Origin: Candidatus Poribacteria bacterium
GTDB lineage: Bacteria > Poribacteria > WGA-4E > WGA-3G
DNA: 64,000 bases
Direction of reading: 5' to 3'
Assembly (NCBI GenBank): GCA_009839975.1
Contig: VXOP01000167.1
Location: 185 to 64,184 of the forward strand
Shown here: positions 17,813-50,956 of the stretch, piece after piece
How the letters are laid out: the number at the start of each line of letters is the position of its first letter
How positions within the stretch are numbered: the stretch's first letter is position 1
Program-made: the position numbers and the translations under genes
The notes under the pieces: model-generated
The model's input: the letters and a program-made list of their open reading frames with translations, nothing else
Told to the model about the DNA's origin: nothing
The model's database searches: none

Positions 17813-17865
17813 CATAATGTAAACCCACAATCGCATCTAAAAGCACTTTTAAGGAGAATAAATTC

Positions 17866-18063
17866 ATGAAAGACAAAATTGTCTATTTTCCCGAACGCAA
17901 ACAGAGACCGGTAAAGCCGATAGAACCCGGTGACGGTGGCGATGATAGTAACGCGCCGAAACGTCCCGATGTCAACAGACCCGATACAAACGAACTTCTA
18001 AAACGCATGAGACGGGTTGACAAAGATCAATCGCGCCGATACCGACAAAGGACGGGAGAGTGA
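17866..18063 (+). CDS. pup: Prokaryotic ubiquitin-like protein Pup (divergent, C-terminal Gly-Glu)
   Basis: 65 aa. Basic/acidic disordered N-terminus. The C-terminus YRQRTGE resembles the canonical YVQKGG[QE]. It sits between dop and prcB and overlaps the prcB start (ATGA). AAGGAG RBS. Confidence 0.5.
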   Translation: MKDKIVYFPERKQRPVKPIEPGDGGDDSNAPKRPDVNRPDTNELLKRMRRVDKDQSRRYRQRTGE

Positions 18064-19702: not shown

Positions 19703-19732
19703 TATTAAAAACAGTCATTAAGGAAAGATTCC

Positions 19733-21193
19733 GTGACATACAGAATAATCGGCATTGAAACCGAATTGGGATGCATGGTTCAGCCTCAGACAATGCAGGC
19801 ACAACGTTTGAAAGCCTCCCCTGAGGGTGTTGCCGCGAATATCAGAGACTATGTCTTCAAACATCTTGAACTCGGTATTCCCGATCTGCACTATCGCGAC
19901 TGGGGAGAACCACCCGGTAACGGCGGCTTCCTCTTCAACGGCGGCAGACTCTACATCGATATGGGACATCTTGAATATGCTACACCGGAATGTGCCAATC
20001 TTTTTGACGCAATCGCTTACGACAAGGCAATTGAGCATGTCATCATGGCGATCCTAAAAGAGAACAGACTTGAGTCACACGTCGCCTTCTACAAAAACAA
20101 CATAGACCACTACACAGGGGCAACGTTCGGCTGCCACGAAAACTATCAGGCACGGCGTGATGTGCCGTTTTATAGAATCGTAATCCCAACACTCCTCCCA
20201 TTTTTCGTTACCCGACAAATATATGCTGGTGCAGGTCGAGTCGGTGCTTATGATGACATCATGGAATTCGGAGATGGACAATACAGTCAAGATGACTTTA
20301 TCGGGTACCAGATATCACAACGCGCGGATCACATCGTCACTGAAATCTATGAATGGATTCAGTTCAGTCGCGCAATAATCAATACCCGGGACGAACCGCT
20401 CAGCGATTACACAAAATATCGTAGACTCCATCTCCTTGTCGGCGACACGAACATGTCGGAGTACGCATCAGCACTCAAAATCGGTACAACCGTACTCATT
20501 CTTGATGCTATTGAGAGACATTACGAACGATACGGAGAAAAACTGCCAATCCCAAACCTTGAACTTGTTGACCCGATCGCCGCTATCAGATACATCTCAC
20601 GGGACACCACACTGACATGGGATGTTGACCTACAGAACGGTCAAACTGTCACTGCCATTGATATTCAACGCAAATACCTAAACTTTGTTCAAGACATGAT
20701 GACACGTCCGAATGAGACGACCCAGTGGATACTCACTGAATGGGAAAATGTCCTTGATGACTTAGAAACAGACTGGACACGTCTTACCACCCGACTCGAC
20801 TGGGCTGCAAAGAAATGGTTTCTTGATGCATTAGTGGAGGAAGAAGGTTTGGATTGGGATGACCAGTGGCTCAAGAGCCTTGACTTAGAATACCATAACA
20901 TTGACCCTGAAACTGGGATATTCTATGCACTCCAATCCGAAGGGTGTATGCGTCGCGTGATTACCGACCACCAGATCAGTCATGCCATCACTAACCCACC
21001 CATCAACACGCGCGCAAGGGTCCGCGGGTATCTCATGCGAAACCTGAAGAAGCATAAGATGCAGTGTATAGTGGATTGGCATCACATCTATGCTGGACAA
21101 ACCGAATGTTATGAGATGAAAGAACCCCTTGACACCAACCTACCAAATGCTCGTAGATGGCTAAATCTCCTCAAACTGCGGCAACGGATGTAG
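19733..21193 (+). CDS. pafA: Pup--protein ligase PafA
   Basis: N-terminal YRIIGIETELG. A paralog of the gene at 16292 without the acidic insert. It sits downstream of prcA, as in the actinobacterial arrangement. GTG start. Confidence 0.65.
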   Translation: MTYRIIGIETELGCMVQPQTMQAQRLKASPEGVAANIRDYVFKHLELGIPDLHYRDWGEPPGNGGFLFNGGRLYIDMGHLEYATPECANLFDAIAYDKAIEHVIMAILKENRLESHVAFYKNNIDHYTGATFGCHENYQARRDVPFYRIVIPTLLPFFVTRQIYAGAGRVGAYDDIMEFGDGQYSQDDFIGYQISQRADHIVTEIYEWIQFSRAIINTRDEPLSDYTKYRRLHLLVGDTNMSEYASALKIGTTVLILDAIERHYERYGEKLPIPNLELVDPIAAIRYISRDTTLTWDVDLQNGQTVTAIDIQRKYLNFVQDMMTRPNETTQWILTEWENVLDDLETDWTRLTTRLDWAAKKWFLDALVEEEGLDWDDQWLKSLDLEYHNIDPETGIFYALQSEGCMRRVITDHQISHAITNPPINTRARVRGYLMRNLKKHKMQCIVDWHHIYAGQTECYEMKEPLDTNLPNARRWLNLLKLRQRM

Positions 21194-33744: not shown

Positions 33745-33774
33745 GGTAGGTGCGATTAGGATATCGCACCTACC
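33745..33774 (+). promoter_or_regulatory. 12-bp perfect inverted repeat hairpin immediately upstream of RBS
   Basis: ggtaggtgcgat-taggat-atcgcacctacc. No U-tract follows. It directly precedes the AGGAGAGG RBS of the gene at 33789. Confidence 0.35.
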
Positions 33775-33788
33775 AGGAGAGGCAACTG

Positions 33789-36686
33789 ATGAAAAGTAAA
33801 AAAAACACATTATTGGGAATTAGAATCGCACGATTTTTCATCATTTTGATTTTAACGATATGCTTCTCAACGAACGTTTGGGCACAAGGTTTCGGCAAGA
33901 ACAAAATCACTGCACAAAGGTTTGATTGGCATATCCATCGTACTGAACATTTTGATATACACTACTATCCAAGCGAAGCAAAACTTGTTCCGATAATGGC
34001 TGCCATCGCTGAAGAAGCTTATGAAAAACATAGCGAGGATTTTGAGCACGAAATTGAGAGTAGAACACCCCTCATCTTATACAAATCACATAAAGATTTT
34101 CAAGAAACTAACATCATACTACAGGAACTGCATGAAGGTATCGGCGGCTTTGCCGAACTCTTTAAACATAGGGTTGTTATACCTTTTACAGGATCACTTG
34201 AAGCTTTTCGTGAGGTGATCTATCATGAACTCATACACATCTTTCAGTTCGACATTCTCTATCAAAAACCGCATGCCCGAATCTATAGCGGAGAGTTCCT
34301 CTATTCGCCACCTATATGGTTCATAGAAGGTATGGCAGATTACTTCGCAAACGATAAAGACGCGCTGGGTGAAATGGTGCTACGAGATGCAAGTATCAAC
34401 AATAATATACTTCCATTAACTGAGTTGCAGAACTTCAATCGTCTGAGTTCTCCTTATCTTGGTTATAAAATGGGACAGTTGGCTGTTGAATATCTCGTCA
34501 CGACGTATGGAAGGGATAAAATCGCCGAGATATTGCGGGGATTGCGACAGAGTAGAACAAAAAATATTGACTTAGTCTTCAAAAACGTACTTGGGGTCAG
34601 TTTGAAAGAATTTGATGTCGGTTATCAACAGATGCTGCGAAAACGTTATTGGCCCCTCATAGAAGATCGCGAGTTACCGAATATCGTTTCTCGGAAACTT
34701 ACTGAAAACGCCAGATTTTCTCATAACATTAAACCTGTATGGTCACCCAGTGGCGATATAGTTGCTTATGTTACTGCCAATGAAGGTTTCTTAGAGATTG
34801 TCCTGATGTCCTCAAAAACAGGCAAGAAACTTGATAGAATTACAAAGCGGTTTTTCCGTAATAAATACGAGGAGATCAGAACTGATTCCAGCGGCTTTGA
34901 CAGAAGCCTTGCGTGGGCACCAAACGGGGATCACATCGCTTTCATCGGTAAACACCACGATGCGAATTATCTCTTTGAAGTTAATATCCTCACACACAAA
35001 CTCACACATTACGTTAAACTCGACTATGATTCAGCAAACTCACCCAGTTATAATGGGGCTGGTGACCGTATCGTTTTTACTGCTTTGAAGGAAGGGCAAA
35101 CAGACCTTTACATCATTGACCTTGACACAGAATCTATTAGCAGATTAACCAGAGATTCCTTCAACGATACGCACCCATCATGGCATCCAAATAGAGATAC
35201 GATCATCTACGCTTCAGAACGTGAACACAAAAACCGACTTGTTCTTATTGACCTGGATCAAAGAACGGAACAGAAACTTACGGATAATGCCTCAAACGCT
35301 ATCAGTCCGATATGGATGTCAGATGGAGAGTCCGTGCTGTTTTGTGCTGACAGGTCAGGTGTATACGATGCATATAAACTCCACATCGCCACCATGGAGA
35401 CGACACGTCTCACGAACTTAATAACTGGGTGTTCCAACCCAAGTTTCTCACCAGATGGAAAAAGATTGCTTTTTAGCGCATATCAAGATGGGAAATATGA
35501 CATCTGTGTGATGTACTCAGACAAAATACTAAACGAAAAAGTCGAAATACCTGAGTTTGCATCAGAACCGATTGCTATAAATATCGATTCAGACGCCTCT
35601 CAGCGAAACTATAGAATTGCCAGACGGAAGTACAGTACACGCAATTCTTTCCGGTTTGATGCGATTTTTCCCCAGTTTAGTTACGGAGCTGATGGACTGC
35701 TACGTAGTCAAATTCAGATGAGTGCCAGCGATATGTTGGGTAATCATCGTGTTGAACTCAGCGTCATAAATCAGTCTGGTGGGTATCTCGTCCCGGATTT
35801 TATTGCACAATACGGATACTTAACGAATCGAGCTGATGTCGGGGTAGTCGTCTACAACTATCATCAATACCATCTACTCGGTTCACTTCGGAATCAAACT
35901 GGTATTTTACAACGAATTACAGGAGGCGGTGCTTTTCTCAGTTATCCCTTTAATCGGTACAACAGATTAGACCTTCAGTATTCTATGTATACGACACCGT
36001 TTTCTTACAATTTTGACACGGTTAATCCTGTTGAGTTCTATGATCGTGGATTTCTCTCGATGGGTTCCATCGCTTTCGTGAGTGATAATACCATGTGGCG
36101 AGAGTTTGCTCCCTATAGAGGTACACGCTACCGTTTTCAAGTAGAACGTTCATTTCCTGCCCTGGGTAGCGAGTTAGCACTTACAAATGCTATTTTTGAT
36201 ATTCGCAAATATATCGGTTTAGGGAGACGTTCAACGATCGCTACTCGGTTACTACTTGGTGGTAGTTTCGGCGCAGACAAATCGCTCTTTTATCTGGGTG
36301 GCATAGACTCACTCCGGGGATATGATTACGAAGACTTTGTTGGTTCTCGGGTTGGACTATTCAATGTTGAGCTGCGTGTGCCTTTCATAGATGTTCTCTA
36401 TTTCGGTTGGCCCTTCCGTTGGTCAATTGGTGGCATTGGCGGCGTTCTATTTATGGATATTGGTGGAACGTGGGCGGATGAATTATACAGTTCAGAGAAT
36501 CCCTTTAGAATCATACGTCGTGAAGGTAGACGTTATCGTCTGGCAGATGTGCAAGGATCAATCGGTCTTGGGATGCGACTCCGTTTCGGTTTATTCTCAT
36601 TAGATTTCGCTGCCGCACGGCACATGGATTTAGCAAGTATCAAGCCAGGCGTAAAATATCACATCGGTTTAGGACAAGCGTTTTAA
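33789..36686 (+). CDS. Outer-membrane multidomain protein: HExxH peptidase-like domain + TolB-like beta-propeller repeats + C-terminal Omp85/surface-antigen beta-barrel
   Basis: Signal peptide. VIYHELIHIFQ metallopeptidase motif. Repeated SP[SN]GD..I[AV][FY] propeller blades. C-terminal G/Y/F-rich alternating beta-strand region ending ...HIGLGQAF. Confidence 0.45.
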   Translation: MKSKKNTLLGIRIARFFIILILTICFSTNVWAQGFGKNKITAQRFDWHIHRTEHFDIHYYPSEAKLVPIMAAIAEEAYEKHSEDFEHEIESRTPLILYKSHKDFQETNIILQELHEGIGGFAELFKHRVVIPFTGSLEAFREVIYHELIHIFQFDILYQKPHARIYSGEFLYSPPIWFIEGMADYFANDKDALGEMVLRDASINNNILPLTELQNFNRLSSPYLGYKMGQLAVEYLVTTYGRDKIAEILRGLRQSRTKNIDLVFKNVLGVSLKEFDVGYQQMLRKRYWPLIEDRELPNIVSRKLTENARFSHNIKPVWSPSGDIVAYVTANEGFLEIVLMSSKTGKKLDRITKRFFRNKYEEIRTDSSGFDRSLAWAPNGDHIAFIGKHHDANYLFEVNILTHKLTHYVKLDYDSANSPSYNGAGDRIVFTALKEGQTDLYIIDLDTESISRLTRDSFNDTHPSWHPNRDTIIYASEREHKNRLVLIDLDQRTEQKLTDNASNAISPIWMSDGESVLFCADRSGVYDAYKLHIATMETTRLTNLITGCSNPSFSPDGKRLLFSAYQDGKYDICVMYSDKILNEKVEIPEFASEPIAINIDSDASQRNYRIARRKYSTRNSFRFDAIFPQFSYGADGLLRSQIQMSASDMLGNHRVELSVINQSGGYLVPDFIAQYGYLTNRADVGVVVYNYHQYHLLGSLRNQTGILQRITGGGAFLSYPFNRYNRLDLQYSMYTTPFSYNFDTVNPVEFYDRGFLSMGSIAFVSDNTMWREFAPYRGTRYRFQVERSFPALGSELALTNAIFDIRKYIGLGRRSTIATRLLLGGSFGADKSLFYLGGIDSLRGYDYEDFVGSRVGLFNVELRVPFIDVLYFGWPFRWSIGGIGGVLFMDIGGTWADELYSSENPFRIIRREGRRYRLADVQGSIGLGMRLRFGLFSLDFAAARHMDLASIKPGVKYHIGLGQAF

Positions 36687-36735: not shown

Positions 36736-39700
36736 ATGGAACCACGGGTAAAGAAGTTTATCATAATTGCCGCCGTTTTAGCCGCACTTGCAGGGATTAT
36801 TGCCGCATGGGTCAATATCTATCCCGATGTACTATGGTTCGGGATGGTGGAATACCTCAGCGTCTACACCAAAATACTCACCACTAAGATATTCGTTGGC
36901 GTTATCGTAGGGTTAGTCTATCTAATCGTTCTCTTAGCGAATTTATTCATAGTCTATAAGTTCACACCAGCACATCTCAGTCCTGCTTTCTTAGGTGGCA
37001 CTGAATTCACGGGTGGAGAAACCAACACTCGCAAGATGATCTATGGCGGACTCACAGTGCTTGCAGTTCTATTTAGTGTGCTAATGGGATATACTGCAAC
37101 TGACAGATGGGAAGTCTATTTACGATATACCCACGCCGATACCTTAAACTTTCAGGCTGCAACACCCATCGTCGTAGGTGAAGGTATCAGTTCAACCCAA
37201 CTTCCCGTTTCAACATTAGAATTAGACGCGAAAAAAATCCAGATCGGTGATGAGATAACAATTAATGTTGATGGGAACGAACAAACTGCAAAAGTTGAGA
37301 GTTTTCTAACCGAGCAGAGAACAGAGGGTGGCAAGAATGTAGAAGCACGCATTGGACTTGGCTTAAACACACCAGTACAGATTGAATCGGGACAAAAGGC
37401 GTTCTTTACATCACTGGCACGAGACCCAATTTTTGATAAAGACGTTTCCTATTACATATTCAAAATGCCGATGTTGCGGTATATATGTGGGACGTTTTTT
37501 GGCTTGTTCATGCTGGTAACGATTTTCGCAATTCTCATCTACTTTTTTCACGGATTGATCACAGGAGATACAAACCAATTCCGATTTCAGCCACCATTTA
37601 AGGTGAAGGCACATCTATTTATTCTTGTTGGTGTCACGCTACTTTTCCGTGCCTGGAATTACCAATTTGTCATGTACGACCTTCTCTATGGAACGAATGA
37701 TGTTGTCCGAGGGGGCGGCGGATACGCTGCAATAAACGCACGGCTACCTATCCTTTGGATAATGCTGGTTATTACGGTACTGGTTGCTCTTATTTTTATC
37801 GTCAGCATCTTTATCCGTAAGAACACTTTTGCTTTTGGGGGATTGATCTTTTTCATCGTCGCAGGACTTCTCGGCAATCTTTATCCACAGATTATACAGA
37901 AATGGCGTGTTGAACCGAATAAGCAGGTATTAGAGACACAGTATATCAATTACAACATCAGGGCAACGTTACAAGCTTACGGCTTAGCGGAAAACAAGGT
38001 ATTAGTAGAGGAATATCCGCTGACAGAAGAAATTAATTACGAAGACATCATAAGTGAAGAAAACGCACCTGTTTTCAATAGCATACGTCTATGGGATTGG
38101 CGACCTTTACGGAGAACGTTCCGACAACTACAGGAACTGCGAACGCAATACGACTTCGTGGATGTTGACATCGACAGATACATCGTTGATGATGAAATTA
38201 GACAGGTGATGTTGTCAGGACGGGAGCTGAATATTGATGAACTCCCTATAGATAGTCGAAATGATTGGTATAAGGAAACCTATGTCTATACACACGGTTA
38301 CGGTGCTGTTGTTAGTCCTGTGAATGAAATTAACAACGGCAAACCGAATATGTACATCAAAGAACTACCCTCCGTGTACGATACGCAGTGGCAACATAGG
38401 TTTGCAGAAATACCTGGTCCTCGCATCTACTATGGTGAGCGGACAAACCGATATGTAATCGTCCACCCTGACCGTAGTAAAGGACCACTTGAATTTGATT
38501 ATCCGATTGAGGGGCAACAATACGCTGAATATGCATATAAAGGAAAGGGCGGCGTACAAATAACCTCTTTCTGGCGGAAACTTCTCTATATGCTCAAATT
38601 TGATAACCAGATAAACTTTGTATTACCAGGGGAGATTGATTCAGAAAGCAACAGCAAAATCCTATACAATCGTAATATCAATCAACGTGTTCAGAAAATC
38701 GCACCGTTCTTACAATATGATGGCGATCCTTACATCATAATTCATAACGGAAGAATTGTATGGATGATTGATGCTTATACTGTCACACACCGTTATCCTT
38801 ATGCTGTTTCTATGAGAAACTTTGTTAAGGATAAACGAAACACTGGACCTTGGGGAAACTACATCCGAAACTCTGTCAAGGTAGTGGTCGACGCTTATGA
38901 TGGCACCGTTGATTTTTATATAGTAGAACGGGAAAATGACCCGATAGCGGAATGTTACCGAAAAATCTTTCCTGACCTGTTCAAACCTTTCTCCGAAATG
39001 CCTGAAGAACTCAAAGCACATATTCGATACCCAACAACAATGTTCCTTATACAAGCACGCGTATACGAAGATTACCACATGAAAGATCCAGTTACATTTT
39101 ATGCTGCTGAGGATAGATGGGAAATCGGCAAGGAACTTTATGACCATACAGATGCTCAAACAAGTCCAGTCCAGACAACACAACCGGCACAACGTTTTGG
39201 TGCAACACAGCAACAGCAACCTATTCAAAGATCAGGTGTAGATGGACAACCTGTTGAACCCTATTATGTCGTTATAAAGTTACCAGGACAAGAAAAAGCT
39301 GAATTTATGTTGATGTTACCTTATGTGCCATACAACAAACCAAATCTAACTGCCTGGATCGCAGCACGATGCGACCTACCGCAATACGGACAACTCCTCG
39401 TCTATCGTTTCCCAAAAGGGAAACAGGTCGCAGGTCCCATGCAGGTTGAAAACTTCATCAGTCAAGAACCAGATATCTCACAACAGATTAGCCTTTGTAA
39501 TACGCAAGGTTCTCGTGTCCTGCGGGTAAATCTGCTTATTTTACCCATGAACGACTCTCTACTCTATGTTGAACCAATCTATATCCAAGCTGAAGATGAA
39601 AAGACTGCTATTCCTGAATTGCGACGGGTCGTTATCGGATATGGAAATAAGGTCGTCTGGGGTGCAAGTCTCAACGAGGCACTCATAAAAATGTTCGGAG

Positions 39701-39930
39701 GTGACATGGGTGTTCAAACCACGTCTGTAGATGTTCCATCTGAAGATACTACAGATTCCTCTGCCCTCCCCACTGGCGATGGTTCACTGCAGGCGTTAAT
39801 TGAACAGGCAAATACTCACTTTACCAACGCTCAAAACGCAGGACGCAACGGCAACTGGGCAGAATACGGACGACATCTCGAACGTTTAGAGCAGACATTA
39901 AAACAACTTCAAAAAAGTAGTAAGGAGTAG
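36736..39930 (+). CDS. UPF0182 family large membrane protein
   Basis: 1064 aa. About 7 N-terminal TM helices followed by a large soluble domain. N-terminal YPDVLWFGMVEY matches the UPF0182 signature as recalled from memory. Confidence 0.5.
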   Translation: MEPRVKKFIIIAAVLAALAGIIAAWVNIYPDVLWFGMVEYLSVYTKILTTKIFVGVIVGLVYLIVLLANLFIVYKFTPAHLSPAFLGGTEFTGGETNTRKMIYGGLTVLAVLFSVLMGYTATDRWEVYLRYTHADTLNFQAATPIVVGEGISSTQLPVSTLELDAKKIQIGDEITINVDGNEQTAKVESFLTEQRTEGGKNVEARIGLGLNTPVQIESGQKAFFTSLARDPIFDKDVSYYIFKMPMLRYICGTFFGLFMLVTIFAILIYFFHGLITGDTNQFRFQPPFKVKAHLFILVGVTLLFRAWNYQFVMYDLLYGTNDVVRGGGGYAAINARLPILWIMLVITVLVALIFIVSIFIRKNTFAFGGLIFFIVAGLLGNLYPQIIQKWRVEPNKQVLETQYINYNIRATLQAYGLAENKVLVEEYPLTEEINYEDIISEENAPVFNSIRLWDWRPLRRTFRQLQELRTQYDFVDVDIDRYIVDDEIRQVMLSGRELNIDELPIDSRNDWYKETYVYTHGYGAVVSPVNEINNGKPNMYIKELPSVYDTQWQHRFAEIPGPRIYYGERTNRYVIVHPDRSKGPLEFDYPIEGQQYAEYAYKGKGGVQITSFWRKLLYMLKFDNQINFVLPGEIDSESNSKILYNRNINQRVQKIAPFLQYDGDPYIIIHNGRIVWMIDAYTVTHRYPYAVSMRNFVKDKRNTGPWGNYIRNSVKVVVDAYDGTVDFYIVERENDPIAECYRKIFPDLFKPFSEMPEELKAHIRYPTTMFLIQARVYEDYHMKDPVTFYAAEDRWEIGKELYDHTDAQTSPVQTTQPAQRFGATQQQQPIQRSGVDGQPVEPYYVVIKLPGQEKAEFMLMLPYVPYNKPNLTAWIAARCDLPQYGQLLVYRFPKGKQVAGPMQVENFISQEPDISQQISLCNTQGSRVLRVNLLILPMNDSLLYVEPIYIQAEDEKTAIPELRRVVIGYGNKVVWGASLNEALIKMFGGDMGVQTTSVDVPSEDTTDSSALPTGDGSLQALIEQANTHFTNAQNAGRNGNWAEYGRHLERLEQTLKQLQKSSKE

Positions 39931-39968
39931 ACATGGAGACCTTAATTTTATAGAAGGAGGTGAAGCAC

Positions 39969-40214
39969 ATGTCCCTTGATTGGAAACCACGACATCGCGA
40001 TATGATCATTGGTGGAATCCCTTGGTTAGCAAGAATTTCAGATAAAGCAAGCGCGAAACTGCAAGGCATCATCGGTGAATACATATATCCGTGACCACAA
40101 GATAAGATGTTCCTGGAGGAACATGACATATCTGCTGACGACTTTGTTGAAATGGTAAAGAACAACCCATCAGATGAAGAGATGATTGCTGCCATGAGAG
40201 AATTGAACAGTTAG
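39969..40214 (+). CDS. Candidate selenoprotein (81 aa) with in-frame UGA at 40092-40094
   Basis: Strong GGAGGTG RBS. 41 codons up to the UGA. The same frame continues for 39 more codons to a UAG. A 7-bp hairpin ATGTTCC-UGGA-GGAACAT begins 12 nt after the UGA, which is SECIS-like spacing. The UGA is flanked by Pro (YP-U-PQ). It is absent from the ORF track because each half is under 60 aa. Confidence 0.4.
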
Positions 40215-40315
40215 AATATCATGCTACATAACAGCACAAAATCACGGTATCCGGTAGGCAATTGTCTGCTCGATACCGTGATATTGTATAAAGGTTTATA
40301 TAAGAGGAGCGTTTT

Positions 40316-43300
40316 ATGTATAGACAACAAAACATCTTTATCTTTCTGTATATACTCTGTCTCTTAGTCTTTTTATTGTGTGACAACCCTATCATCTTTG
40401 CACAGGATATATCTAACGATGAACAGATAATAGAACGTTATAAACTGATGCTTAAACGTAAGCCAAAAGAGGGGAGTACATTTGACCGGCTCTATCAGTT
40501 TTATCTGGAAGGTGCTGGTTTAGATGCAATGGTTTCAGATTATCAAGCAGAAGCAGAAGCCAATCCGAATGAACCAAACCTGCAACTTATCTTAGGACAT
40601 ATCTACAAACGGCTTGGAAGAGATACAGAAGCCGTCAATACATACAAACGTGCTGTTGCACTTGCACCAGACAATTACTATACGCATTTTGCACTCGGAC
40701 AAGCGTTTGCTGCATTACTACAGCATGAAAATGCCATCAATTCTTTGAAACAGTCAGCAACTTTTGCTGAGAAGACGCAAGATGCTACTCCCGAAGAAAT
40801 GACTGCCATCTATAAAGCACTCGGCAAAAGTTACTTCAGGCGAGATAGGGTTGATGAAGCAATTACTGCATGGATAAAGATCGCTGAAATTGATCCACAA
40901 AACATCTTTGCACGGACTGAACTTGCCGATCTATTCATAGAGCAGGAACTATACGAGCAAGCAATCACACAGCATCAAGCGATAATACAACTCAAAACGG
41001 ATGATCCTTACCGAAAGTGTTTAAGTCAAAGAGAAATTGGCAATATCTATGAAATAAAAGGTGATTATCAGAAAGCCATTCAAAGTTATGATACAGCACT
41101 CTCCTTAACAGTACCCGGCAACTGGTTGCGGAAAGACCTTCAACATCGTATCATCGGTATATTCGCCACTGATAGTGATTGGAAAGGCTTGATTAAATAC
41201 TACCAACAGAAACTCGAAACAACGCCAAATGAACCGGAACTACTCGGCTTGTTAGCTGCAGCGTATATTGAAAACCAGCAAACTGAAGAAGGGATAAACG
41301 TATATCGGAAAGGTTTAGAACTTGCACCAACAGATTCGACGCTCCGCCTAAATCTTATCGCTGCACTCCGCAACGATGAAAAGTTCGCTGAAGCTGCAAC
41401 TGAATATGAAGTACTGAGTGAACAAGATCCAGACGATTTTGGAATCTATCGTGAACTCGGTGAGTTGTATATACAAGTGGATGATGAAGACAGCGCAAGG
41501 AAAACGTATCAACAGATGATTGATCGTGATCCGAACAGTGCCAGTACATATCTGACACTTGCAGAAATCTACACAGGCAATGAATGGCTTGAAGATGCAA
41601 TCGCAGCATATCAGAAAGCGATATCCCTTGCCCCGAATAATCTTGACTACATTGCGTATTTTGGGGAATTCTATCTGCGTCAAGGAAGTCGTGACAAAGC
41701 AATAGAAACTTGGAATATGATGGTTGCCTCTAACTTAGGGATTGCCGAAAATTATGAAAGACTTGCAAAACTACTTAGCACAAAGAACTTTCATACCGAA
41801 GCAATAACCGTAAGTCGAAAAGCTGTAGAATTGAAACCCGATGTCTACGAATACCGTAAGGAGTTGGCACAACGACTTATGAAAACTGGGGAATTCGAGG
41901 AAGCACAGAAAACGTTTACCGAAGCAGCAAAACTTGCACCGAACGCATTCTTTGCTGAGGAGATGGACAACCAACGTATTGAACTCTATCGTAGACAAGG
42001 AACGCTTTTGGAAAAAATCGAAGCAGTGGAGGTAGCACTTGAAGAATCTGGACTGACAGATACAGAGATATTCACACAACAGAAACGACTCGCAAAGATG
42101 TATCTTAAGTTGGGTAATGTCACTTATGCATTGGAAGTCCTTTTGAAAGCAAAGGCGGACAAACCTGATGATGTAATTGTCAATCGATGGCTTGCGGAGG
42201 TATATATCAAGCAAAACAGACGCGATGATGCGAATGCTATCTACATGCATCTTATACAAATCGACAGTGCCAATGCACGCGAATACTATACGAATATTGC
42301 GCAATCTCATTTGCATGTGATGGATTTTGAAGCTGCCACTGCATCAGCAAAGCAGGTCATCGCGCACAGTCCACGCAATCCAGAAGGACATAAGATGCTT
42401 GCTGAAATTGCAAAACAGTCCTCCAATTATGATGGTGCTATAGATAGCCTCAAACAGGCAATTCGTCTACGTCCAGATGCAATTGATATGCGTTCTGAGT
42501 TGGCAGCGGTTTATAAGCTTGCAGAAAAACCGAGGCAAGCACTTGCACAGTATTGGCGATGCTGGGAATTAAGCGATTCTGTTAGTGACAAACTCTCTTT
42601 CGTCAAACCACTTTCCGATACATATTACGACTTAGGACAGGGTAGTGCTTTGTCGGAAAAACTAAAACAGTTATCAAAATCAAATGCATCTGGTGTTGCC
42701 CCTGTTTTGGCACTTGCTGAACTCCACCGTATGGAAGGGGATCTCCCAAAGGCAAGATTTCAACTTGCACGTGCATTAGATAGGCAAAGCGATAATCCGG
42801 ACCTGTTGTCACAACTTGTGAACATTAGCCTTGACCTTGGTGATAACCAAGACGCCTTAACCTATCAAGAACGTCTCGTTAAAGCACATCCAGACCCAAT
42901 CCACCAGCGAAAACTGGGTGAGTTGTTATTTGATGCTGGACGCGAGCAGGAGGCTATTCAGGCATGGACAAAACTGCTTCATGCGAAAAACCAGACACTT
43001 GAAGCGGAGGTAAAACTCGCTATTTTACTGATTCGGCATGCACATCTTGACGAAGCACTCTTTGTCCTTGATCGCGCAGCTGAGAAAATTACTGGTACAG
43101 ATGCACATATAGCACTCTTCCAACTCGGTGTGGTATTAGTGAAAATGAACGAGTATGAACGCGCACGGACGCATTTCCAACGTATCTTAGAGATGCCAAA
43201 ACCACAGGAAACCGCAGATAAGAAACGAGATACATACAGACGTTATAACTATGATCCACCCGGTATAAATACCAGAAAATTTGATCTTGCAGACGACCTT

Positions 43301-46300
43301 CTTTACGATATTCAGGATCAATCATACAGAGGCAGCAATGTTCAAGGATGGATGCCGAAAAACTTTGACGAAGCACAAGCAGGCGCACTTGTACATTTAG
43401 TGACAATATCACAACAAGAAGGCAAACTAAATGAATTCATACAACAGTATGAAACCAACCTGAATAAAAACCCAAAGGACATCAAGACGCTTGAAACCTT
43501 AGCGCAAATCTATACCTTGACAGAAAACACAAAGAAGACAGATGAAATTATTGAGCAATTGATCGCTGCATCTCCTAAAGATACCACCTACCAAGCCATA
43601 AGATTAAGAAATGCGATTCAAAGAGACTATACTTCTGAAACATTAGAGCAATATCTAAATAACACCACAGATTTAACTGAAGCATCACGTCTTTGGTTCA
43701 CATTTCAATACATCCAAAAACGCTACCTTGAAGGGGAAGAGGCTGAAGCAGAGAAACTGATAAATGAAATTGAAGATACAAATGGCATGAACCTTGACAC
43801 TATTGATGCCCTTATAGAGACACTTGTTCTCATGAAGAAAACTGACGCTGCGGAACGATTCATTGCAAAGTTACCTATTCCTACGCAAACACAACAGTCA
43901 ACGTATAGATACATTTATAGTAAGGTTACCCATGCCTACCTAAAGCTTGGGCAGTATGACAAGGCTGTAAATCTCTTCTGGACTTACCTTGAGAAGACTC
44001 GTCCTGAAATGATTAACACACAACGAGTTCCATCATTACCTTTAAGCACATCTTCTTCAAGTAGTTCATCCATTCAAACAATATTTCCTACAAGCACAGC
44101 CTATTACAAGGGAAGTCGATTGTGGTATCTAAAATCCTTTTCACGCGAATTGTGGATGAATAATCAACAGATGGTACTGTACGAAAAATTACAGACTGTT
44201 TTTGATGCGACGGATGGAAGAGATAGAATCTTCCCTGGATTAGCACTTAGCTACTGTTACTGGTGGAATGGACGGCGCGAAAAAGCACAAGAAATACTCG
44301 TTTCACTTCAAAACGAATTCCCACATGACCAATCCCTCAAACTCAATACAGTGTTCTTAGCAATTCAATCAGGACAACAGGCTGGAACAATTAAATTACT
44401 TGAGGAACTTACAATCAGTGATCCGAGAAATAGATCTAAATACTACGAACTGACGTTAAAACTGGCAATGCAGACGGGTAACAGTGTCGCAATACGTGAT
44501 CTGATAGTAAAACTCCTGAATACACCAAGCAGTGCTCATGAACTTTACAACTATTCCATGCAACTAAAGAAAGCCGGTTATTCACAATACGCTTCTGCAA
44601 TTATGAATAAAACAGTGAAACTTGCTATGGGGGTGCAAGATGCAAGTTTTTTGATGGATATAAGTCGTCATTTGGAAAATCTCGGTAGAGGACAGGATGC
44701 CGCGATGATCGCAGAAAGGGCACTACGATTTGCAAACCGACGCGACCGATACGGTAGAACACTATCTTCTTGGAAACTTCAACAAGCCACACACCTGACG
44801 AGCCATTCAGAATCCATTAAAGATCATGAAATACAATTAATTGAAGCTGCAAGAAAGAACCCTAATTCACATAAGGCACAGATAAAGTTGGCAGCCTTCT
44901 ATGAAGGAACAGAACGGATTGAAAAGGCGACAGACGCATTCAAGACTGCACTCACTTTACGACCTAAAGACAGTGATACTCGCAAACGTTACGCAGCTTT
45001 GTTATACCGAAGTGGAAAATATGAGGATGCTATTCCGCAATATACGAAACTGCTCCAAGACAACCCAAGTATACTTGGGTACGATACGTGGGATGTAATT
45101 GAAACCTTTTTTAGGGCAAAGAGAGTTGACGAACTCGTCTCTCTCTCCAAAGATATGATAACACCATCCATTGGACGGGATTATAATAACGAATTAGCAC
45201 GAGATGTAGCAAGTGAACTTAGGGATACAAACAATCATAAAGCAGCTATAGAAATATATGAAAAACTGATTGAAGCACAGCCGAGTGACTCATACTATAT
45301 TCGATACATGGCTGGTGCATACACCGAAATGGGTGAATATGAGAAAGCAATCCAGATACTAAGGGATTTACTGAAAATCGAGGATTCACTGTATTGGCAA
45401 AAAACGACCATCTCATTATTGACACGTTATTATAGATTTTCCGGTGGACTGGAGGAATTCATCACGGAATATGAAGCAAAACTGGCAGAAAAACCGGCTG
45501 ATAACAACTTACGCTATCTTGTTGCTACAATGAAATTTGAAGCGAATGACTTGGATGGGGCAGACGAACTCACTTTACAACTTCTTGATGAGGACACGTT
45601 CAATACTCTAAATAGAGGTGACCTCACAAGTTTGGCGGATGCTTATCGACTTGCAGGGTTGCGAGAACGTGAATTGCAGATTCTGGAATACATTGTGAAA
45701 AACCAACAAGGGTATTGGACGACATATAATAGACTCGGCATGATATATGGACTAAGGGGTGAAACGGAGAAAGCACAAGATGCATATCGTAAAATGGGTA
45801 GACTCAAGTTGCAATATAGGAACGATTACATTGACCTAATGAATCTGGGTTCGATTTATATGCAGAATCTCATGTGGGATGATGCTGAACCGCTTTTTAT
45901 TCAAATCGTCAACGACCTGTCTGTTCAATCATATTATCGTAGCCAAGCAGCAGATCAGTTGGTAGGAATAAAAAGACGTCGCACTGATTTCAATAATTCA
46001 ACCCAACTGAATGATAAGATACAATCCATGGACATCGGCACGTTGCGAACTTTAGCAAAAGATTTCGCACGGCGCGGAGATAGAAAAAAAGCAATAACCT
46101 TATACACACATCTCCAAAAGATCATGCCAGAAGACTTCGAATCTCGGGCACACCTTGCATCAATATATACGACCCAAAATCAATACGACAATGCTGTTGC
46201 GACATGGGAATCACTCCTTGCTGAAGACCCGGGAAACTCAAAGTTTCAAGATGGACTTGTCCGGACCTATCAGAAAGCAGGTAATATTAACAAAGCAATT

Positions 46301-49300
46301 GAAATAGCGCAACACTACATTGACCGTGATTCTGACAACAGTGTCAATTACATCCGTATTGCAAAACTCTATGCCGATGCGGATCGGACCGATGATGCTA
46401 TCACTGCATACAAAAAAGCAGTTGAAATTAACCCTGGCAATGCCGAACTCTACCAAGAAATGGCTACACTCTATCTGCGTAAAGAGGATGTAGATGCTGC
46501 TAAACAGGCTTACCAAGAAGCAATACGGTACACGGGATCAGAATGGGAACGACAGGATATTGAGCAAGAGATAATAAAACTAACTGAAAGTAAAGAAAAC
46601 AGTGAAGACGCTGAACAGAAGATGGAAGAGGATAAGGTGCTTACTTATGCACAGCAAAAGGCACGCGCGGATAAGTTAAGAGAAGATGGAAAACTCACTG
46701 AGGCAAGTACTACTTATGAAAAAGCTCTTGAAATGACTACCGATAGTTTTGAACAGAGAAGAATCTATGAATATCTGATCGATATTTATCCAAAAGTTGG
46801 GAATGATGATGCTGCCATTGAAATGCACGACATGCTTGCATTCTCAATGGGAATATACAATGCTGAACAAAGAGCACGCGATAGGTTAATCAATGCTTAT
46901 GATAGTGCAAGCAAACTTGATATCCTGACAACTATCTATAAGACAAAACTTGAGAACGATCCCAAAAATATAAAGAATATGGAAATGCTTGCAGAAACTT
47001 ACAAAAAAGCGAACGACCATGCAAAGACAGCTGAGATGTATCAAGCAATCATCAAGTTACAACCGAATAACATCATAAGTTATTACTGGATTGCTGCTGC
47101 ATATAATAGAGATGGACAATCCGATTTAGCTAAGCAGATGTTAAGTCAAGGTGAAAGTGTTCTTTCTGTTAGTGATAGAAAAAGCGATAGGTATTTCCTT
47201 AAAGAGCTCGGGGATATCTGCTATGACGGTAGATTGTACGACTCGGCAATTAAACTGGCTTATACTGCAATCGCTGAAAGTATAGGGACGAGACTCCACG
47301 GCGTTGGTTCTCCTGCTGAATCTGCCTATGAACTTCTGGCAAAGAGTTACCTCGCTGCAAAACGATATGAGGAAGCAGTATATGCTTATCAGCAACTCGT
47401 AAATCTCCCAGGAAGTGGTTGGCGTAGAGACGAAGCAAGGAGAGCCATTGAAAGCGCATCAAAGTTGGGTAAACTTTACGATAAACAGATACCGAAACTG
47501 CTGAAACAGGTTCAGGAAAATCCTGATGACGCAGAAGTTCGTTTGACACTTGCACAAACCTACGAAAAAGCAGATAAACCTGATGAATCAATTACACATT
47601 ACGAAAAGTTGAGTCAACTCCAACCTAATGATGTCAGATGGCAAAAAAAACTGGGTGATCTCTATAAAAAGGAGAGGTTACAGCGAAGCCTAACTGGACA
47701 AGTATATGAAAACATTGCAGTGCAGCTTGACGGCAACGCAAATTATGTAGAGGTAGAGAACAGTGACTCATTGAGAAGAATCACACGACAGGCGACAATT
47801 TCCTTCTGGATGAAACCCACTGCATTTCCAAATAGATATGCACCGATAATATCTAAAGGAGATGAACGACAAGCAGATTTGAGCAACCGAAGCTACACCC
47901 TTCATCTTGAAGAGCAGGGAAAAATACATTTCTCCTCTGCTCCCAGGGGGCGTGGACAGAGGCAAATCTATACAGATGTTGGTACTATTCAATTAAACCA
48001 ATGGTATCACATTACTGGCGTTATTGATGCGACACGAAACAGTATCAAACTCTATGTCAACGGGATTGAATTAGGTAACAATACCTTGAGTGGACAACAG
48101 AGTTTCTATGAAAGTCATTTACCGCTACGCATTGGATGGACACATGAGATAGAAAGACCTACACATTCACCTTTCGTTGGACTTATTGATGATGTGCGAA
48201 TCTGGAATATCGCACGTCGCGGAAATCAGATCCGTTCTGATATGAATACAGAATTGAAGGGAGATGAACAAGGATTAGTCGCGTATTGGAAATTCAATGG
48301 TGCTACAGATGGCATGGTACTTGACGCTACACCCAATAAAAACCATGGTAGAATATTCGGAAATGCCAAATTTACCTCTTATTCACGTCCTATTTTCGAG
48401 AGTGCAAAAAGTGCACAACTTACAAAAGCATCTGCTGCTTATGAAAAAGCAGTTAAGCTTGACCCTACTTCTTATGAACTATACACCTTATTGGCAGAAA
48501 CTTATGACAGAAGTGGTCAATCATCAAAAGCAGAGGAGGTATATCTCCGAGCTCTGGATGCTCCACTTACAGAACGCAACCACGATGACGCGATTCAAGC
48601 CATCTGGTCATTTTACGAAAATAGGAAGGATCAAGACAAGGGAATTGCAATCCTTGAAGGACTTAAGCAGCGACAGAAAAATAGTGTAGTTCTATATCAA
48701 CTGTTAGGAGATGTATACCGAAGTGTCGGAGATACTGACAAATCTGATCACGCTTATACGCAGTGGATTGAACTCCGACGGCGACAGTTAAACCAGCAAG
48801 GTTCCGGTTATCAAGATTTTGCCGAAGAACTGATAAAAAAAGAGATGTTTCCAGCAGAGGCAATAGAATTTGCAAAACGTGCTGTCCAACACAATAGTAA
48901 TTATACGAATATACTAACATTAGGATATGCTTATCTTGCAGATGGACAAAATGATATAGCACTTGAAGAATTCAAAAAAGGGTTAAAGATCTTGAAATCC
49001 GGGTCTTTTCAACGCAAATTCTTCTCATGGATTTTTGATTACGGTGAAAAAATAGAAGACAAAGAGACTTACGTTGACATGTTAAACGAACTCGTAAACG
49101 TTATACCTGATAACTTAATCGTTCAACTTAATCTTAGTCTGCTGCTTGCGGATTTCTGCCTAAAAAATGACATGCAAGATAAAGCAAGAGCGTACATTCA
49201 AAAAACCGGTTTCATTACTGAAGATGCATGGCTATACCTCGGTCCTTTTGACAATACCAGCGGAATAGGTCACGATACTGCATATATTCAAGAAGACATC

Positions 49301-49729
49301 ACACAAATAGACATGAACAAAAAGTATGATGCGGATAATAAGAAGATCAGTTGGAACAATCTGCCAGATGACAAGTTGGATGGTTTTATTAATATGGGAG
49401 AAGGGCGCGACTGGGAGGTTGCTTATGCTTTCACAACTATCGTTTCACCTGATGCGCGTGAAGTCCAATTCCGATTCGATAGTGATGATCAGGGAAAAAT
49501 CTGGCTTAATGGTGAAAGGGTATACGCAAGACGCACTTCACATCCGACAGAAATTGATCGGTATGTTTTTCCTGTGACTCTCAAGCAAGGCACAAACAGT
49601 CTACTCATCAAAGTATGTGAAGAGTCAGGTGGTTGGGGATTTTACCTGCGTATCACAGATGAACACGGTAAACCTTATCAGGACCTACAATTCCGACGTC
49701 CAGATACGGGATCGGTGGTGCAACAATAA
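40316..49729 (+). CDS. Giant secreted TPR-repeat protein (3137 aa) with C-terminal concanavalin-A-like (LamG) and beta-sandwich carbohydrate-binding-like domains
   Basis: N-terminal signal. Dozens of TPR units (A..Y..A..L.P). Around residues 2480-2680 there is a LamG-like pattern (ISFWMKP...WYHITGV...LYVNG). The final roughly 170 aa is a jelly-roll-like domain (GKIWLNGERVY...GGWGFYLRI). Confidence 0.75.
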   Translation: MYRQQNIFIFLYILCLLVFLLCDNPIIFAQDISNDEQIIERYKLMLKRKPKEGSTFDRLYQFYLEGAGLDAMVSDYQAEAEANPNEPNLQLILGHIYKRLGRDTEAVNTYKRAVALAPDNYYTHFALGQAFAALLQHENAINSLKQSATFAEKTQDATPEEMTAIYKALGKSYFRRDRVDEAITAWIKIAEIDPQNIFARTELADLFIEQELYEQAITQHQAIIQLKTDDPYRKCLSQREIGNIYEIKGDYQKAIQSYDTALSLTVPGNWLRKDLQHRIIGIFATDSDWKGLIKYYQQKLETTPNEPELLGLLAAAYIENQQTEEGINVYRKGLELAPTDSTLRLNLIAALRNDEKFAEAATEYEVLSEQDPDDFGIYRELGELYIQVDDEDSARKTYQQMIDRDPNSASTYLTLAEIYTGNEWLEDAIAAYQKAISLAPNNLDYIAYFGEFYLRQGSRDKAIETWNMMVASNLGIAENYERLAKLLSTKNFHTEAITVSRKAVELKPDVYEYRKELAQRLMKTGEFEEAQKTFTEAAKLAPNAFFAEEMDNQRIELYRRQGTLLEKIEAVEVALEESGLTDTEIFTQQKRLAKMYLKLGNVTYALEVLLKAKADKPDDVIVNRWLAEVYIKQNRRDDANAIYMHLIQIDSANAREYYTNIAQSHLHVMDFEAATASAKQVIAHSPRNPEGHKMLAEIAKQSSNYDGAIDSLKQAIRLRPDAIDMRSELAAVYKLAEKPRQALAQYWRCWELSDSVSDKLSFVKPLSDTYYDLGQGSALSEKLKQLSKSNASGVAPVLALAELHRMEGDLPKARFQLARALDRQSDNPDLLSQLVNISLDLGDNQDALTYQERLVKAHPDPIHQRKLGELLFDAGREQEAIQAWTKLLHAKNQTLEAEVKLAILLIRHAHLDEALFVLDRAAEKITGTDAHIALFQLGVVLVKMNEYERARTHFQRILEMPKPQETADKKRDTYRRYNYDPPGINTRKFDLADDLLYDIQDQSYRGSNVQGWMPKNFDEAQAGALVHLVTISQQEGKLNEFIQQYETNLNKNPKDIKTLETLAQIYTLTENTKKTDEIIEQLIAASPKDTTYQAIRLRNAIQRDYTSETLEQYLNNTTDLTEASRLWFTFQYIQKRYLEGEEAEAEKLINEIEDTNGMNLDTIDALIETLVLMKKTDAAERFIAKLPIPTQTQQSTYRYIYSKVTHAYLKLGQYDKAVNLFWTYLEKTRPEMINTQRVPSLPLSTSSSSSSSIQTIFPTSTAYYKGSRLWYLKSFSRELWMNNQQMVLYEKLQTVFDATDGRDRIFPGLALSYCYWWNGRREKAQEILVSLQNEFPHDQSLKLNTVFLAIQSGQQAGTIKLLEELTISDPRNRSKYYELTLKLAMQTGNSVAIRDLIVKLLNTPSSAHELYNYSMQLKKAGYSQYASAIMNKTVKLAMGVQDASFLMDISRHLENLGRGQDAAMIAERALRFANRRDRYGRTLSSWKLQQATHLTSHSESIKDHEIQLIEAARKNPNSHKAQIKLAAFYEGTERIEKATDAFKTALTLRPKDSDTRKRYAALLYRSGKYEDAIPQYTKLLQDNPSILGYDTWDVIETFFRAKRVDELVSLSKDMITPSIGRDYNNELARDVASELRDTNNHKAAIEIYEKLIEAQPSDSYYIRYMAGAYTEMGEYEKAIQILRDLLKIEDSLYWQKTTISLLTRYYRFSGGLEEFITEYEAKLAEKPADNNLRYLVATMKFEANDLDGADELTLQLLDEDTFNTLNRGDLTSLADAYRLAGLRERELQILEYIVKNQQGYWTTYNRLGMIYGLRGETEKAQDAYRKMGRLKLQYRNDYIDLMNLGSIYMQNLMWDDAEPLFIQIVNDLSVQSYYRSQAADQLVGIKRRRTDFNNSTQLNDKIQSMDIGTLRTLAKDFARRGDRKKAITLYTHLQKIMPEDFESRAHLASIYTTQNQYDNAVATWESLLAEDPGNSKFQDGLVRTYQKAGNINKAIEIAQHYIDRDSDNSVNYIRIAKLYADADRTDDAITAYKKAVEINPGNAELYQEMATLYLRKEDVDAAKQAYQEAIRYTGSEWERQDIEQEIIKLTESKENSEDAEQKMEEDKVLTYAQQKARADKLREDGKLTEASTTYEKALEMTTDSFEQRRIYEYLIDIYPKVGNDDAAIEMHDMLAFSMGIYNAEQRARDRLINAYDSASKLDILTTIYKTKLENDPKNIKNMEMLAETYKKANDHAKTAEMYQAIIKLQPNNIISYYWIAAAYNRDGQSDLAKQMLSQGESVLSVSDRKSDRYFLKELGDICYDGRLYDSAIKLAYTAIAESIGTRLHGVGSPAESAYELLAKSYLAAKRYEEAVYAYQQLVNLPGSGWRRDEARRAIESASKLGKLYDKQIPKLLKQVQENPDDAEVRLTLAQTYEKADKPDESITHYEKLSQLQPNDVRWQKKLGDLYKKERLQRSLTGQVYENIAVQLDGNANYVEVENSDSLRRITRQATISFWMKPTAFPNRYAPIISKGDERQADLSNRSYTLHLEEQGKIHFSSAPRGRGQRQIYTDVGTIQLNQWYHITGVIDATRNSIKLYVNGIELGNNTLSGQQSFYESHLPLRIGWTHEIERPTHSPFVGLIDDVRIWNIARRGNQIRSDMNTELKGDEQGLVAYWKFNGATDGMVLDATPNKNHGRIFGNAKFTSYSRPIFESAKSAQLTKASAAYEKAVKLDPTSYELYTLLAETYDRSGQSSKAEEVYLRALDAPLTERNHDDAIQAIWSFYENRKDQDKGIAILEGLKQRQKNSVVLYQLLGDVYRSVGDTDKSDHAYTQWIELRRRQLNQQGSGYQDFAEELIKKEMFPAEAIEFAKRAVQHNSNYTNILTLGYAYLADGQNDIALEEFKKGLKILKSGSFQRKFFSWIFDYGEKIEDKETYVDMLNELVNVIPDNLIVQLNLSLLLADFCLKNDMQDKARAYIQKTGFITEDAWLYLGPFDNTSGIGHDTAYIQEDITQIDMNKKYDADNKKISWNNLPDDKLDGFINMGEGRDWEVAYAFTTIVSPDAREVQFRFDSDDQGKIWLNGERVYARRTSHPTEIDRYVFPVTLKQGTNSLLIKVCEESGGWGFYLRITDEHGKPYQDLQFRRPDTGSVVQQ

Positions 49730-49861: not shown

Positions 49862-50956
49862 TTGAACGTTTCTTCGGAGATCACGGTTTTGAAACTAAAA
49901 AAATTACGCGAGCAAATAAATCACATTGATGACAAACTTCTAAAACTACTGCAAGAACGTGCCGAGCTCTCAAAGCAAGTCGGCAGCTTAAAAGCAGATA
50001 TGGGATCGGAAATCCATGTGCCGCATCGTGAGTACGAAATCATAACTCGTATTAAAAAAGAGAATTTCGGTATATATCCTGAAGACGCTATTGAGAAAAT
50101 CTGGGCGGAAATCTTTTCGGCATCACGAGATGCGCAAATACCAAAAAACCGAATCGCTTTTCTCGGTCCACCGGGTAGTTTCGGACACACGGCAAGTAGA
50201 TCCTTTTTCGGACCTAAGGCAGAAATGATTCCCATCATACCTCAGACTGATATCTTTACAGAAGTTGAAACAGAACGTACTGATTTTGGTGTGGTCGCCA
50301 TTGAAAATTCTGTTTACGGTACTGTCAGAGATGTTTTGGAACGTTTCTTACACACACGTCTGAATATATGCGCGGAAATATATCAACCCATCAGACATAA
50401 TCTCATCTCAAAGTATCCACTCTCTAAGATTGAACGTGTCTACTCACACAGGCAACCTTTTGCCCAATGTAGAATATGGTTGAATAAGTTCTTGAAATCA
50501 GTGGAGCAGATTGAAGTTGTCAGTACGTCTGATGCTGCACAACGCGCGGCGGATGAACCCAATTCAGCTGCTATTGCCAGTAGCCTGGCAAGTGAAATCT
50601 ATGAAGTACCAATCATAGCAGATTCCATAATGGATGAACCAGATAACACAACCCGATTTTTTGTTATTGGAAACCAAAGGGTTGGCAAAAGCGGGAACGA
50701 TTGCACATCTATTTTCTTTGCAATCAAAGACAAAATCGGTGCGTTGTATGAAATCTTGGAAGTATTGGACAAACATCAATTAAACTTGAGTTACATAGAA
50801 TCGCTCCCCTCACGGACCAAACCGTGGGAATACATCTTTTTCGCTGATATTGATGGACATATTGACGATGAGAATATGCGTCTTGCACTTGAATCTCTTG
50901 ATGATATGTGTCGTAATGTGAAAATCCTCGGTTCATACCCACGTGGTGTAAAGTAA
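49862..50956 (+). CDS. pheA: Bifunctional chorismate mutase / prephenate dehydratase (P-protein)
   Basis: N-terminal CM helix (LRE.I..ID..LL.LL..R). PDT domain (IAFLGPPGSFGHTAS, ESRP). C-terminal ACT domain. The start is uncertain: TTG at 49862 or TTG at 49889 after GGAGA. Confidence 0.7.
   Translation: MNVSSEITVLKLKKLREQINHIDDKLLKLLQERAELSKQVGSLKADMGSEIHVPHREYEIITRIKKENFGIYPEDAIEKIWAEIFSASRDAQIPKNRIAFLGPPGSFGHTASRSFFGPKAEMIPIIPQTDIFTEVETERTDFGVVAIENSVYGTVRDVLERFLHTRLNICAEIYQPIRHNLISKYPLSKIERVYSHRQPFAQCRIWLNKFLKSVEQIEVVSTSDAAQRAADEPNSAAIASSLASEIYEVPIIADSIMDEPDNTTRFFVIGNQRVGKSGNDCTSIFFAIKDKIGALYEILEVLDKHQLNLSYIESLPSRTKPWEYIFFADIDGHIDDENMRLALESLDDMCRNVKILGSYPRGVK

Follow-up and report, generated by a model that had tools for sequence, protein, structure and literature searches.

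A conserved in-frame UGA and downstream hairpin point to a DUF5069 selenoprotein gene in sponge-symbiont Candidatus Poribacteria

A short gene at 39969..40214 (plus strand) in a 64,000-nt stretch of Candidatus Poribacteria DNA (contig VXOP01000167.1 of assembly GCA_009839975.1; the whole stretch is called the window here) very probably encodes an 81-residue selenoprotein of the DUF5069 family, conserved in sponge-symbiont Poribacteria. Judged from the sequences compared, its in-frame UGA is highly likely to encode selenocysteine (Sec) with the help of a functional selenocysteine insertion sequence (SECIS). In this it resembles bacterial selenoprotein genes, with Escherichia coli fdhF as the prototype, in which an in-frame UGA is followed by a stem-loop within the coding sequence. 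The mechanism would be that of standard bacterial Sec insertion; what is new is the family, which is very probably genuine and has been systematically mis-annotated. Candidatus Poribacteria are uncultivated sponge symbionts. The gene was present in every poribacterial genome retrieved, and in none of them was the Sec codon replaced by a cysteine (Cys) codon.

Gene structure and the DUF5069 family

The reading frame opens with the ATG at 39969-39971, runs through codons 1-41 (39969..40091) to the UGA at 40092..40094, which is the inferred Sec codon of residue 42 (Sec42), continues for 39 sense codons (43-81; 40095..40211) that are translated only if the UGA is recoded, and closes with the TAG at 40212-40214, all on the plus strand. 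A first-pass annotation, made by a model from the sequence alone, had proposed a selenoprotein here and had given the positions of the ATG, TGA and TAG and the peptide exactly. Its interpretation is supported by the comparative data reported below rather than by the hairpin alone. The Shine-Dalgarno sequence GGAGGTG that it listed is present (39956..39962, plus strand), with a spacer to the ATG of 6 nt on recount rather than 7, and GGAGG is kept in 83/85 homologous loci. Public annotation truncates the gene to 41 residues because the selenocysteine UGA is read as a stop. The NCBI product is a 41-aa hypothetical protein equal to codons 1-41 (e.g., MCY4570748.1) and was found on 118 contigs. Likewise, the retrieved proteins P0012-P0015, which stop at ...YIYP, are the same gene cut off at the UGA.

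The 81-residue product, searched with U replaced by C, matches Pfam PF16798 (DUF5069) over residues 7-78, across the UGA, at 53.5 bits (E = 3.5e-14; gathering threshold 27 bits). Each half alone stays under the threshold (21.3 and 18.6 bits). The tentative assignment to a DUF5069-like family in the first-pass annotation is thereby verified. Only positions 4-75 of the 133 in the profile are covered, which is less than a full-length domain. The poribacterial protein is thus a short form comprising the N-terminal sub-domain, as are the Cys forms P0010, P0011, P0019 and P0025 of 89-93 aa. A search of the product against NCBIfam matched no model, and hence no NCBIfam selenoprotein model.

Homologues align across the UGA, and the commonest residue there is Cys, as the first-pass annotation had also suggested. 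A profile search of 1.84 billion representatives gave 468 family members. In 185 aligned family domains, the UGA column holds Cys in 102, serine (Ser) in 32, no residue in 12 and tryptophan (Trp, called as "W") in 11. Ser occurs mostly in multi-domain paralogues, and the 12 without a residue are proteins that end right before the column. The single solved DUF5069 structure, PDB 3omd (Leptospirillum rubarum, "uncharacterized protein"), aligns at E = 9.5e-15 and has Cys at the column in the motif GEYTYNCPLDQ. At the DNA level, the codon at the column is TGT (Cys) in P0010 and P0011.

The "W" entries bear on whether UGA is instead read as a standard amino acid, either because the code has changed genome-wide (table 4 or 25) or through leaky near-cognate read-through by tRNA-Trp, which would give Trp42. 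In favor of this, W stands at the position in European Nucleotide Archive (ENA) and Logan calls of short contigs, and P0155 (locus L098) has a genuine TGG. However, the DNA has TGA for all five of the 11 "W" sequences that were inspected, and five further entries are near-identical to genomic loci with TGA, P0155 being the last. A genome-wide sense UGA was ruled out, as 11/38 long window open reading frames (ORFs) end in TGA as an ordinary stop, with short read-through tails, and the coding density of the window is 92% under table 11. Leaky read-through would leave unexplained the frozen synonymous sites and compensatory hairpin changes described below, as well as the Cys of the family. We consider Trp at this position extremely unlikely.

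The spurious "W" proteins in public collections stem from code-4 gene calls on short ENA and Logan contigs (L002, L003, L090-L095), in which the Sec UGA is translated as Trp. The call on L093 passes two further TGAs in its tail.

Coding constraint across the UGA

Conservation of the UGA was assessed in 86 poribacterial loci: the window, five loci on metagenome contigs, and the 80 genomic loci that a search with one genome per species gave, all 80 from Candidatus Poribacteria. The gene is conserved end to end, and TGA is present at the Sec codon, in 86/86 of these loci; one of them, L010 (JAAXGN010000016.1), is 99% identical to the window. The same UGA also occurs in the more diverged lineages L090-L095 and L097, and the proteins of the UGA lineages whose DNA was read are approximately 50-70% identical. 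The only alternative codon in the locus survey was TGT (Cys), found in more distant relatives with a different gene context.

The 39 codons past the UGA, described in the first-pass annotation as protein-like, behave as coding sequence in 82 unique sequences. In-frame stops are absent from all of them (0/82), and each of the other two frames has stops in 82/82. Entropies at the three codon positions are 0.29, 0.16, and 0.88 past the UGA, compared to 0.21, 0.07, and 0.94 before it. Pairwise differences past the UGA amount to 34,621 synonymous and 22,349 non-synonymous changes. The stop-free frame, the third-position entropy and the synonymous excess indicate that purifying selection acts on the downstream half at the protein level, in one frame with the upstream half.

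These data can be set against the reading contained in every public annotation, in which the UGA is a true stop after a 41-residue product. The remainder would then be a separately initiated ORF of a split gene, or part of a decaying pseudogene. A possible start codon for the downstream part does lie 12 nt past the UGA in Poribacteria, where the codon is always ATG, TTG, or CTG. Reinitiation there fails because the codon is AAG (lysine) or GTA (valine) in other UGA lineages, and it has no ribosome binding site before it. The downstream frame is open in 82/82 sequences and constrained in the frame of the upstream part, and in the Cys homologues as well as in 3omd one uninterrupted domain runs through this point. 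Persistence of the same TGA with an intact frame across 80 species is not expected of a pseudogene. Termination at the UGA, whether in a split gene or a pseudogene, is therefore very improbable.

The hairpin downstream of the UGA

Bacterial SECIS (bSECIS) elements are modeled with a loop of 3-9 nt, an upper stem of 4-16 bp and a minimum free energy (MFE) of <= -7.5 kcal/mol, with a G in the first two loop positions and the loop 16-37 nt from the UGA (consensus model of Zhang and Gladyshev, cited after the 2026 review PMC13188914). In the window, the hairpin AUGUUCC-UGGA-GGAACAU (40107..40124, plus strand) begins 12 nt past the UGA, which places its loop at a distance of 19 nt. With a UGGA loop of 4 nt, a stem of 6-7 bp and the G in place, it lies within all of these limits. 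The MFE limit is passed by 75/75 unique sequences (region +3..+50), and the window value is -12.2 kcal/mol. Folded jointly with RNAalifold, 74 distinct poribacterial sequences give as their consensus a 6-bp stem UGUUCC/GGAACA with the loop UGGA (40108..40123, plus strand). Its arms are at 40108-40113 and 40118-40123, and its loop is at 40114-40117 with G at loop positions 2 and 3. The 7-bp hairpin of the first-pass annotation was thus correctly placed 12 nt after the UGA, but only its inner six pairs and the UGGA loop are conserved. The outer A-U pair, present in the window, holds in 47/74 sequences and was rejected as a conserved feature. An extended lower stem in the single-sequence fold (40100-40104 with 40129-40133) was also rejected, with 64% of cells paired and no covariation. 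Rfam, among whose captures bacterial SECIS elements are not expected, gave no match in a search of the whole window.

Several observations weigh against a Sec-inserting element and a selenoprotein at this locus. The case for selenium in the protein is an indirect one, and we know of no DUF5069 member with a known biochemical function. No tRNA-Sec, selA, selB, or selD was found in the 64-kb window or the scanned flanks. ARAGORN, run on the window and on 60 loci, detected no tRNA, and Pfam annotation of all 41 long window ORFs gave no selenium-related gene. The machinery is therefore presumed for this particular genome. The z-score of the single 61-nt fold is only -1.72, an equivalent bSECIS-like hairpin occurs at 13.6% of random window positions, and such a hairpin follows 202/1,447 window UGA triplets. 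The stem is short, with a folding energy of only -5.8 to -6.9 kcal/mol for the core by itself. The stem is also invariant within Poribacteria, and the covariation comes from 10 hand-picked sequences of other lineages. Because the hairpin alone is not above chance, its significance rests on comparison with other sequences.

Synonymous sites provide one such comparison. Codons 48-51 (TTC CTG GAG GAA, encoding F-L-E-E) are fixed in 81-82 of the 82 sequences. Among 52 conserved degenerate codons, seven are fixed to one codon, and four of the seven are these hairpin codons, compared to 3/48 outside the hairpin. The chance of all four hairpin codons being among the seven is P = 1.3e-4.

Covariation provides another. 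Only two stem substitutions were found within the phylum (L011 and L016), both giving G-U wobble pairs. As the stem does not otherwise vary in Poribacteria, compensatory changes were sought in other UGA lineages. The hairpin is GUAUUCC-UGGA-GGAAUAC in L090, where one inserted codon places it 15 nt past the UGA. It is AAGUUCC-UGGA-GGAACUU in L094, AGUUCC-UGGA-GGAACU in L097, and a 5-bp version, GUUCC-UGGA-GGAAC, in L091 and L093. In the ten-sequence alignment of UGA lineages, three of the seven stem pairs have changed on both sides and still pair. Paired cells make up 90% of this alignment compared to 31-67% in slid controls, and the covariation score is above 499/500 shuffles and all slid controls, for what is a small, hand-picked set of ten.

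All UGA lineages inspected share the 12-nt core UUCC-UGGA-GGAA unchanged, and it dictates the peptide F-L-E-E. Of the 11 "W" representatives, 10 have FLEE, among them all five with TGA confirmed in the DNA, and the exception is P0155 with its true TGG. The approximately 60 Cys forms all lack FLEE and vary widely at this 4-mer. A comparable hairpin was looked for in the Cys loci L006 and L096 and in the TGG locus L098, and none was found. Since FLEE and the hairpin are found in UGA forms and not in Cys or Trp forms, the element exists only where the UGA exists. Taken with the frozen codons and compensatory changes, this sequence pattern indicates that selection acts on the hairpin at the RNA level and that hairpin and UGA go together. 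The proposal of a bacterial SECIS in the first-pass annotation is borne out to this extent, by fit to the published model and by comparison within and between lineages.

A conserved hairpin could also have another role, as a protein-binding site, an attenuator or a terminator on the antisense strand, with its place after the UGA a coincidence. In a pattern scan, this inverted repeat came up on the minus strand as terminator-like, and the short core stem would also suit such a role. The presence of the hairpin in UGA forms and not in Cys or Trp forms of the gene speaks against this. So does its spacing, which is fixed at 12 nt past the UGA (15 nt in L090 with its inserted codon), and the antisense ORF is open in only 5/85 loci. 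We give a role unconnected with the UGA hardly any credence. Two candidate features on the opposite strand were rejected: the minus-strand "terminator" at 40124-40107, which is the same inverted repeat read on that strand, and the 124-aa antisense ORF at 39821-40195, which is open only in the five loci just mentioned.

The minimal functional element of E. coli fdhF, a 17-nt upper stem-loop located 11 nt past its UGA, closely resembles in geometry the 18-nt hairpin found here 12 nt past the UGA. Compared to fdhF-type bSECIS elements, however, the poribacterial hairpin is very compact: its loop is a UGGA tetraloop, it has no bulged U, its lower stem is not conserved, and binding by SelB is putative. 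The ultra-conserved core, common to several lineages, could mean that SelB recognizes an unusually strict motif or that the Sec form of the gene has spread horizontally. This compact, invariant hairpin, in forcing F-L-E-E, is a natural example of RNA structure constraining protein sequence, and it could serve engineering as a minimal SECIS.

Selenium use, protein function and genomic setting

Genes for selenocysteine synthesis and insertion have been recorded in other poribacterial genomes. Counts by clusters of orthologous groups (COGs) for Candidatus Poribacteria WGA-3G are two for SelA (COG1921), one for SelB (COG3276) and one for SelD (COG0709) (Slaby et al., 2017; PMC5649159, Table S4). 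In the same table, poribacterial bin70 has two, one, and one, and bin44 has four, one, and two, respectively. In our set, WGA-3G (ASZN01) is locus L078, and its copy of the gene has the TGA. In addition, Sec-type group 4 hydrogenases have been reported from Poribacteria metagenome-assembled genomes (MAGs) (PMC13582414, 2026).

The hairpin and SelB might also serve to insert Cys rather than Sec, if the UGA were recoded by a tRNA(ReC)-type tRNA or an allo-tRNA. Genes similar to tRNA(ReC) are reported from 13-17% of the genomes of one study and can, according to it, mediate SECIS-dependent UGA recoding (PMC13582414), and our sequence evidence cannot separate Sec from Cys insertion. On the other hand, keeping a costly UGA and SECIS in all 80 species is unparsimonious when TGT or TGC would suffice. 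The Sec biosynthesis genes SelA and SelD are recorded in poribacterial genomes, and no such tRNA was found among the sequence scanned (the window and 60 loci). Recoding to Cys thus has a very slim chance of being correct.

For Sec insertion, the following course of events is proposed. Translation would start at the ATG at 39969. At the UGA at 40092, the hairpin UGUUCC-UGGA-GGAACA would act as a bacterial SECIS, its loop beginning 19 nt downstream. SelB-GTP-Sec-tRNA(Sec) would presumably bind the G-containing apical loop and bring selenocysteine to the A site. The ribosome would then continue for 39 codons to the UAG at 40212, with selenium incorporated in the product.

Structural data are available for the Cys-containing relatives. 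An AlphaFold model of the Cys homologue P0010, which is 58% identical to the window protein, has a mean predicted local distance difference test (pLDDT) score of 85.6 and shows a small helical domain with the fold of the solved member, 3omd. The Cys in this model directly precedes helix 47-55. On this basis, we propose that the poribacterial protein is a small all-helical domain matching the N-terminal ~80 residues of the 3omd fold, and that Sec42 would lie right before helix 2, in the conserved motif Y-x-Y-P-U-P-x-D. The 3omd protein has 145 residues and Cys at the column, whereas the poribacterial protein has 81 residues and Sec. Its helical fold and its lack of CxxU and UxxC motifs set it apart from redox selenoproteins of the thioredoxin fold. 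Sec42 is the sole Cys or Sec of the poribacterial protein. By analogy with other selenoproteins, Sec42 might be a catalytic residue of redox or nucleophilic type, paired with a thiol partner outside the protein, a suggestion for which we see the case as evenly balanced. In its favor, Sec42 takes the place of a reactive Cys, begins a helix at its N-terminal side and has Ser as its counterpart in paralogues.

A 2026 inventory of prokaryotic selenoproteins includes predicted single-Sec selenoproteins in DUF523, DUF1858, DUF3179, DUF166, and DUF1573 and in the hypothetical proteins DG, DW, and DF (PMC13188914). As in these, TGA- and Cys-containing homologues align at one column in the poribacterial family, and a bSECIS follows. 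Unlike these, DUF5069/PF16798 is not listed, has no NCBIfam match, and is helical without CxxU or UxxC. DUF5069 is absent from the 119 families and subfamilies of that inventory, a comparison that covers the inventory table itself. Neither "DUF5069" nor "PF16798" occurs in any indexed paper. We raise, tentatively and as the less probable case, the broader idea that DUF5069 is an uninventoried selenoprotein family of non-thioredoxin helical fold in which a single catalytic Sec provides a selenium-dependent core function in sponge symbionts.

Recognition of this gene corrects a systematic annotation error, around which some metagenome gene callers work by a change to genetic code 4. The prokaryotic selenoproteome gains a family, and the putative functional residue is marked in a DUF that has a crystal structure. 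With the residue marked and the structure at hand, DUF5069 becomes experimentally approachable. The gene is also genomic evidence for selenium use by Poribacteria, which fits an earlier report of SelA and SelB enrichment in sponge symbionts.

Gene neighborhoods are inconsistent between lineages (UPF0182/pheA, a kinase-like ORF, Pyr_redox_2, MerF), and no function could be derived from them. In the window, the upstream syntenic neighbor is a UPF0182 family membrane protein gene (36736..39930, plus strand; PF03699, E = 1e-240) that ends 38 nt before the ATG and is possibly co-transcribed with the selenoprotein gene. UPF0182 is adjacent upstream in 74/85 loci, and pheA is downstream in 76/85. Between the selenoprotein gene and pheA (49862-50956), the window has a gene for a giant 3,137-aa TPR-repeat/Laminin_G_3 protein (40316-49729, plus strand). 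It occurs at that place in only 3/85 loci and looks like a lineage-specific insertion; elsewhere, pheA lies 55-877 nt downstream. An inverted repeat with 11 perfectly matched pairs, ATCACGGTATC...GATACCGTGAT, and a loop of ~20 nt is located at about 40241-40284 (plus strand) between the selenoprotein TAG and the giant TPR gene, and it could be a terminator or an operator.

Other lineages have different neighbors. In the Cys loci, homologous unannotated ORFs precede the gene: L006:8876-9994 (372 aa, 7 nt upstream) and L096:4928-5977 (349 aa, 24 nt upstream). The two are 26% identical over 313 aa (E = 2e-8), carry the kinase-like motifs D-x-x-P-x-N and F-[LV]-[ED]-F-A, and are absent from Poribacteria; this kinase-like protein may be a conserved functional partner. 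The TGG (Trp) member P0155 (L098:369-874) overlaps the end of a MerF mercury-transporter gene (PF11431) by 4 nt. In the diverged UGA lineage of P0007, a Pyr_redox_2 gene (L092:18-371) ends 17 nt upstream of the selenoprotein gene, and its product might be a redox partner. This lineage also includes L091, which has pheA (chorismate mutase) downstream, as in Poribacteria.

Elsewhere in the window, on the plus strand, a complete Pup-proteasome cluster lies at 14291-21193. A proteasomal AAA ATPase is encoded at 14291-16231, and two Dop/PafA-like genes of the Pup-ligase family are at 16265-17812 and 19733-21193. The cluster also has a gene for a proteasome subunit (18060-18935) and, adjacent to it, an ORF of 262 aa (18914-19702) that has no Pfam match and is possibly the second subunit. 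The region at 270-4926 (plus strand) contains a Csc2 gene (type I-D CRISPR Cas7-like; PF18320, E = 2e-112) at 3220-4233, flanked by ORFs of 989 aa and 227 aa without Pfam matches that may encode other type I-D effector subunits. Finally, a 978-aa protein encoded at 33750-36686 (plus strand) combines Peptidase_MA_2, a PD40/beta-propeller and a C-terminal Omp85. This fusion of a protease with an outer-membrane barrel is an unusual architecture, and its gene is syntenic upstream of UPF0182 in L001 too.

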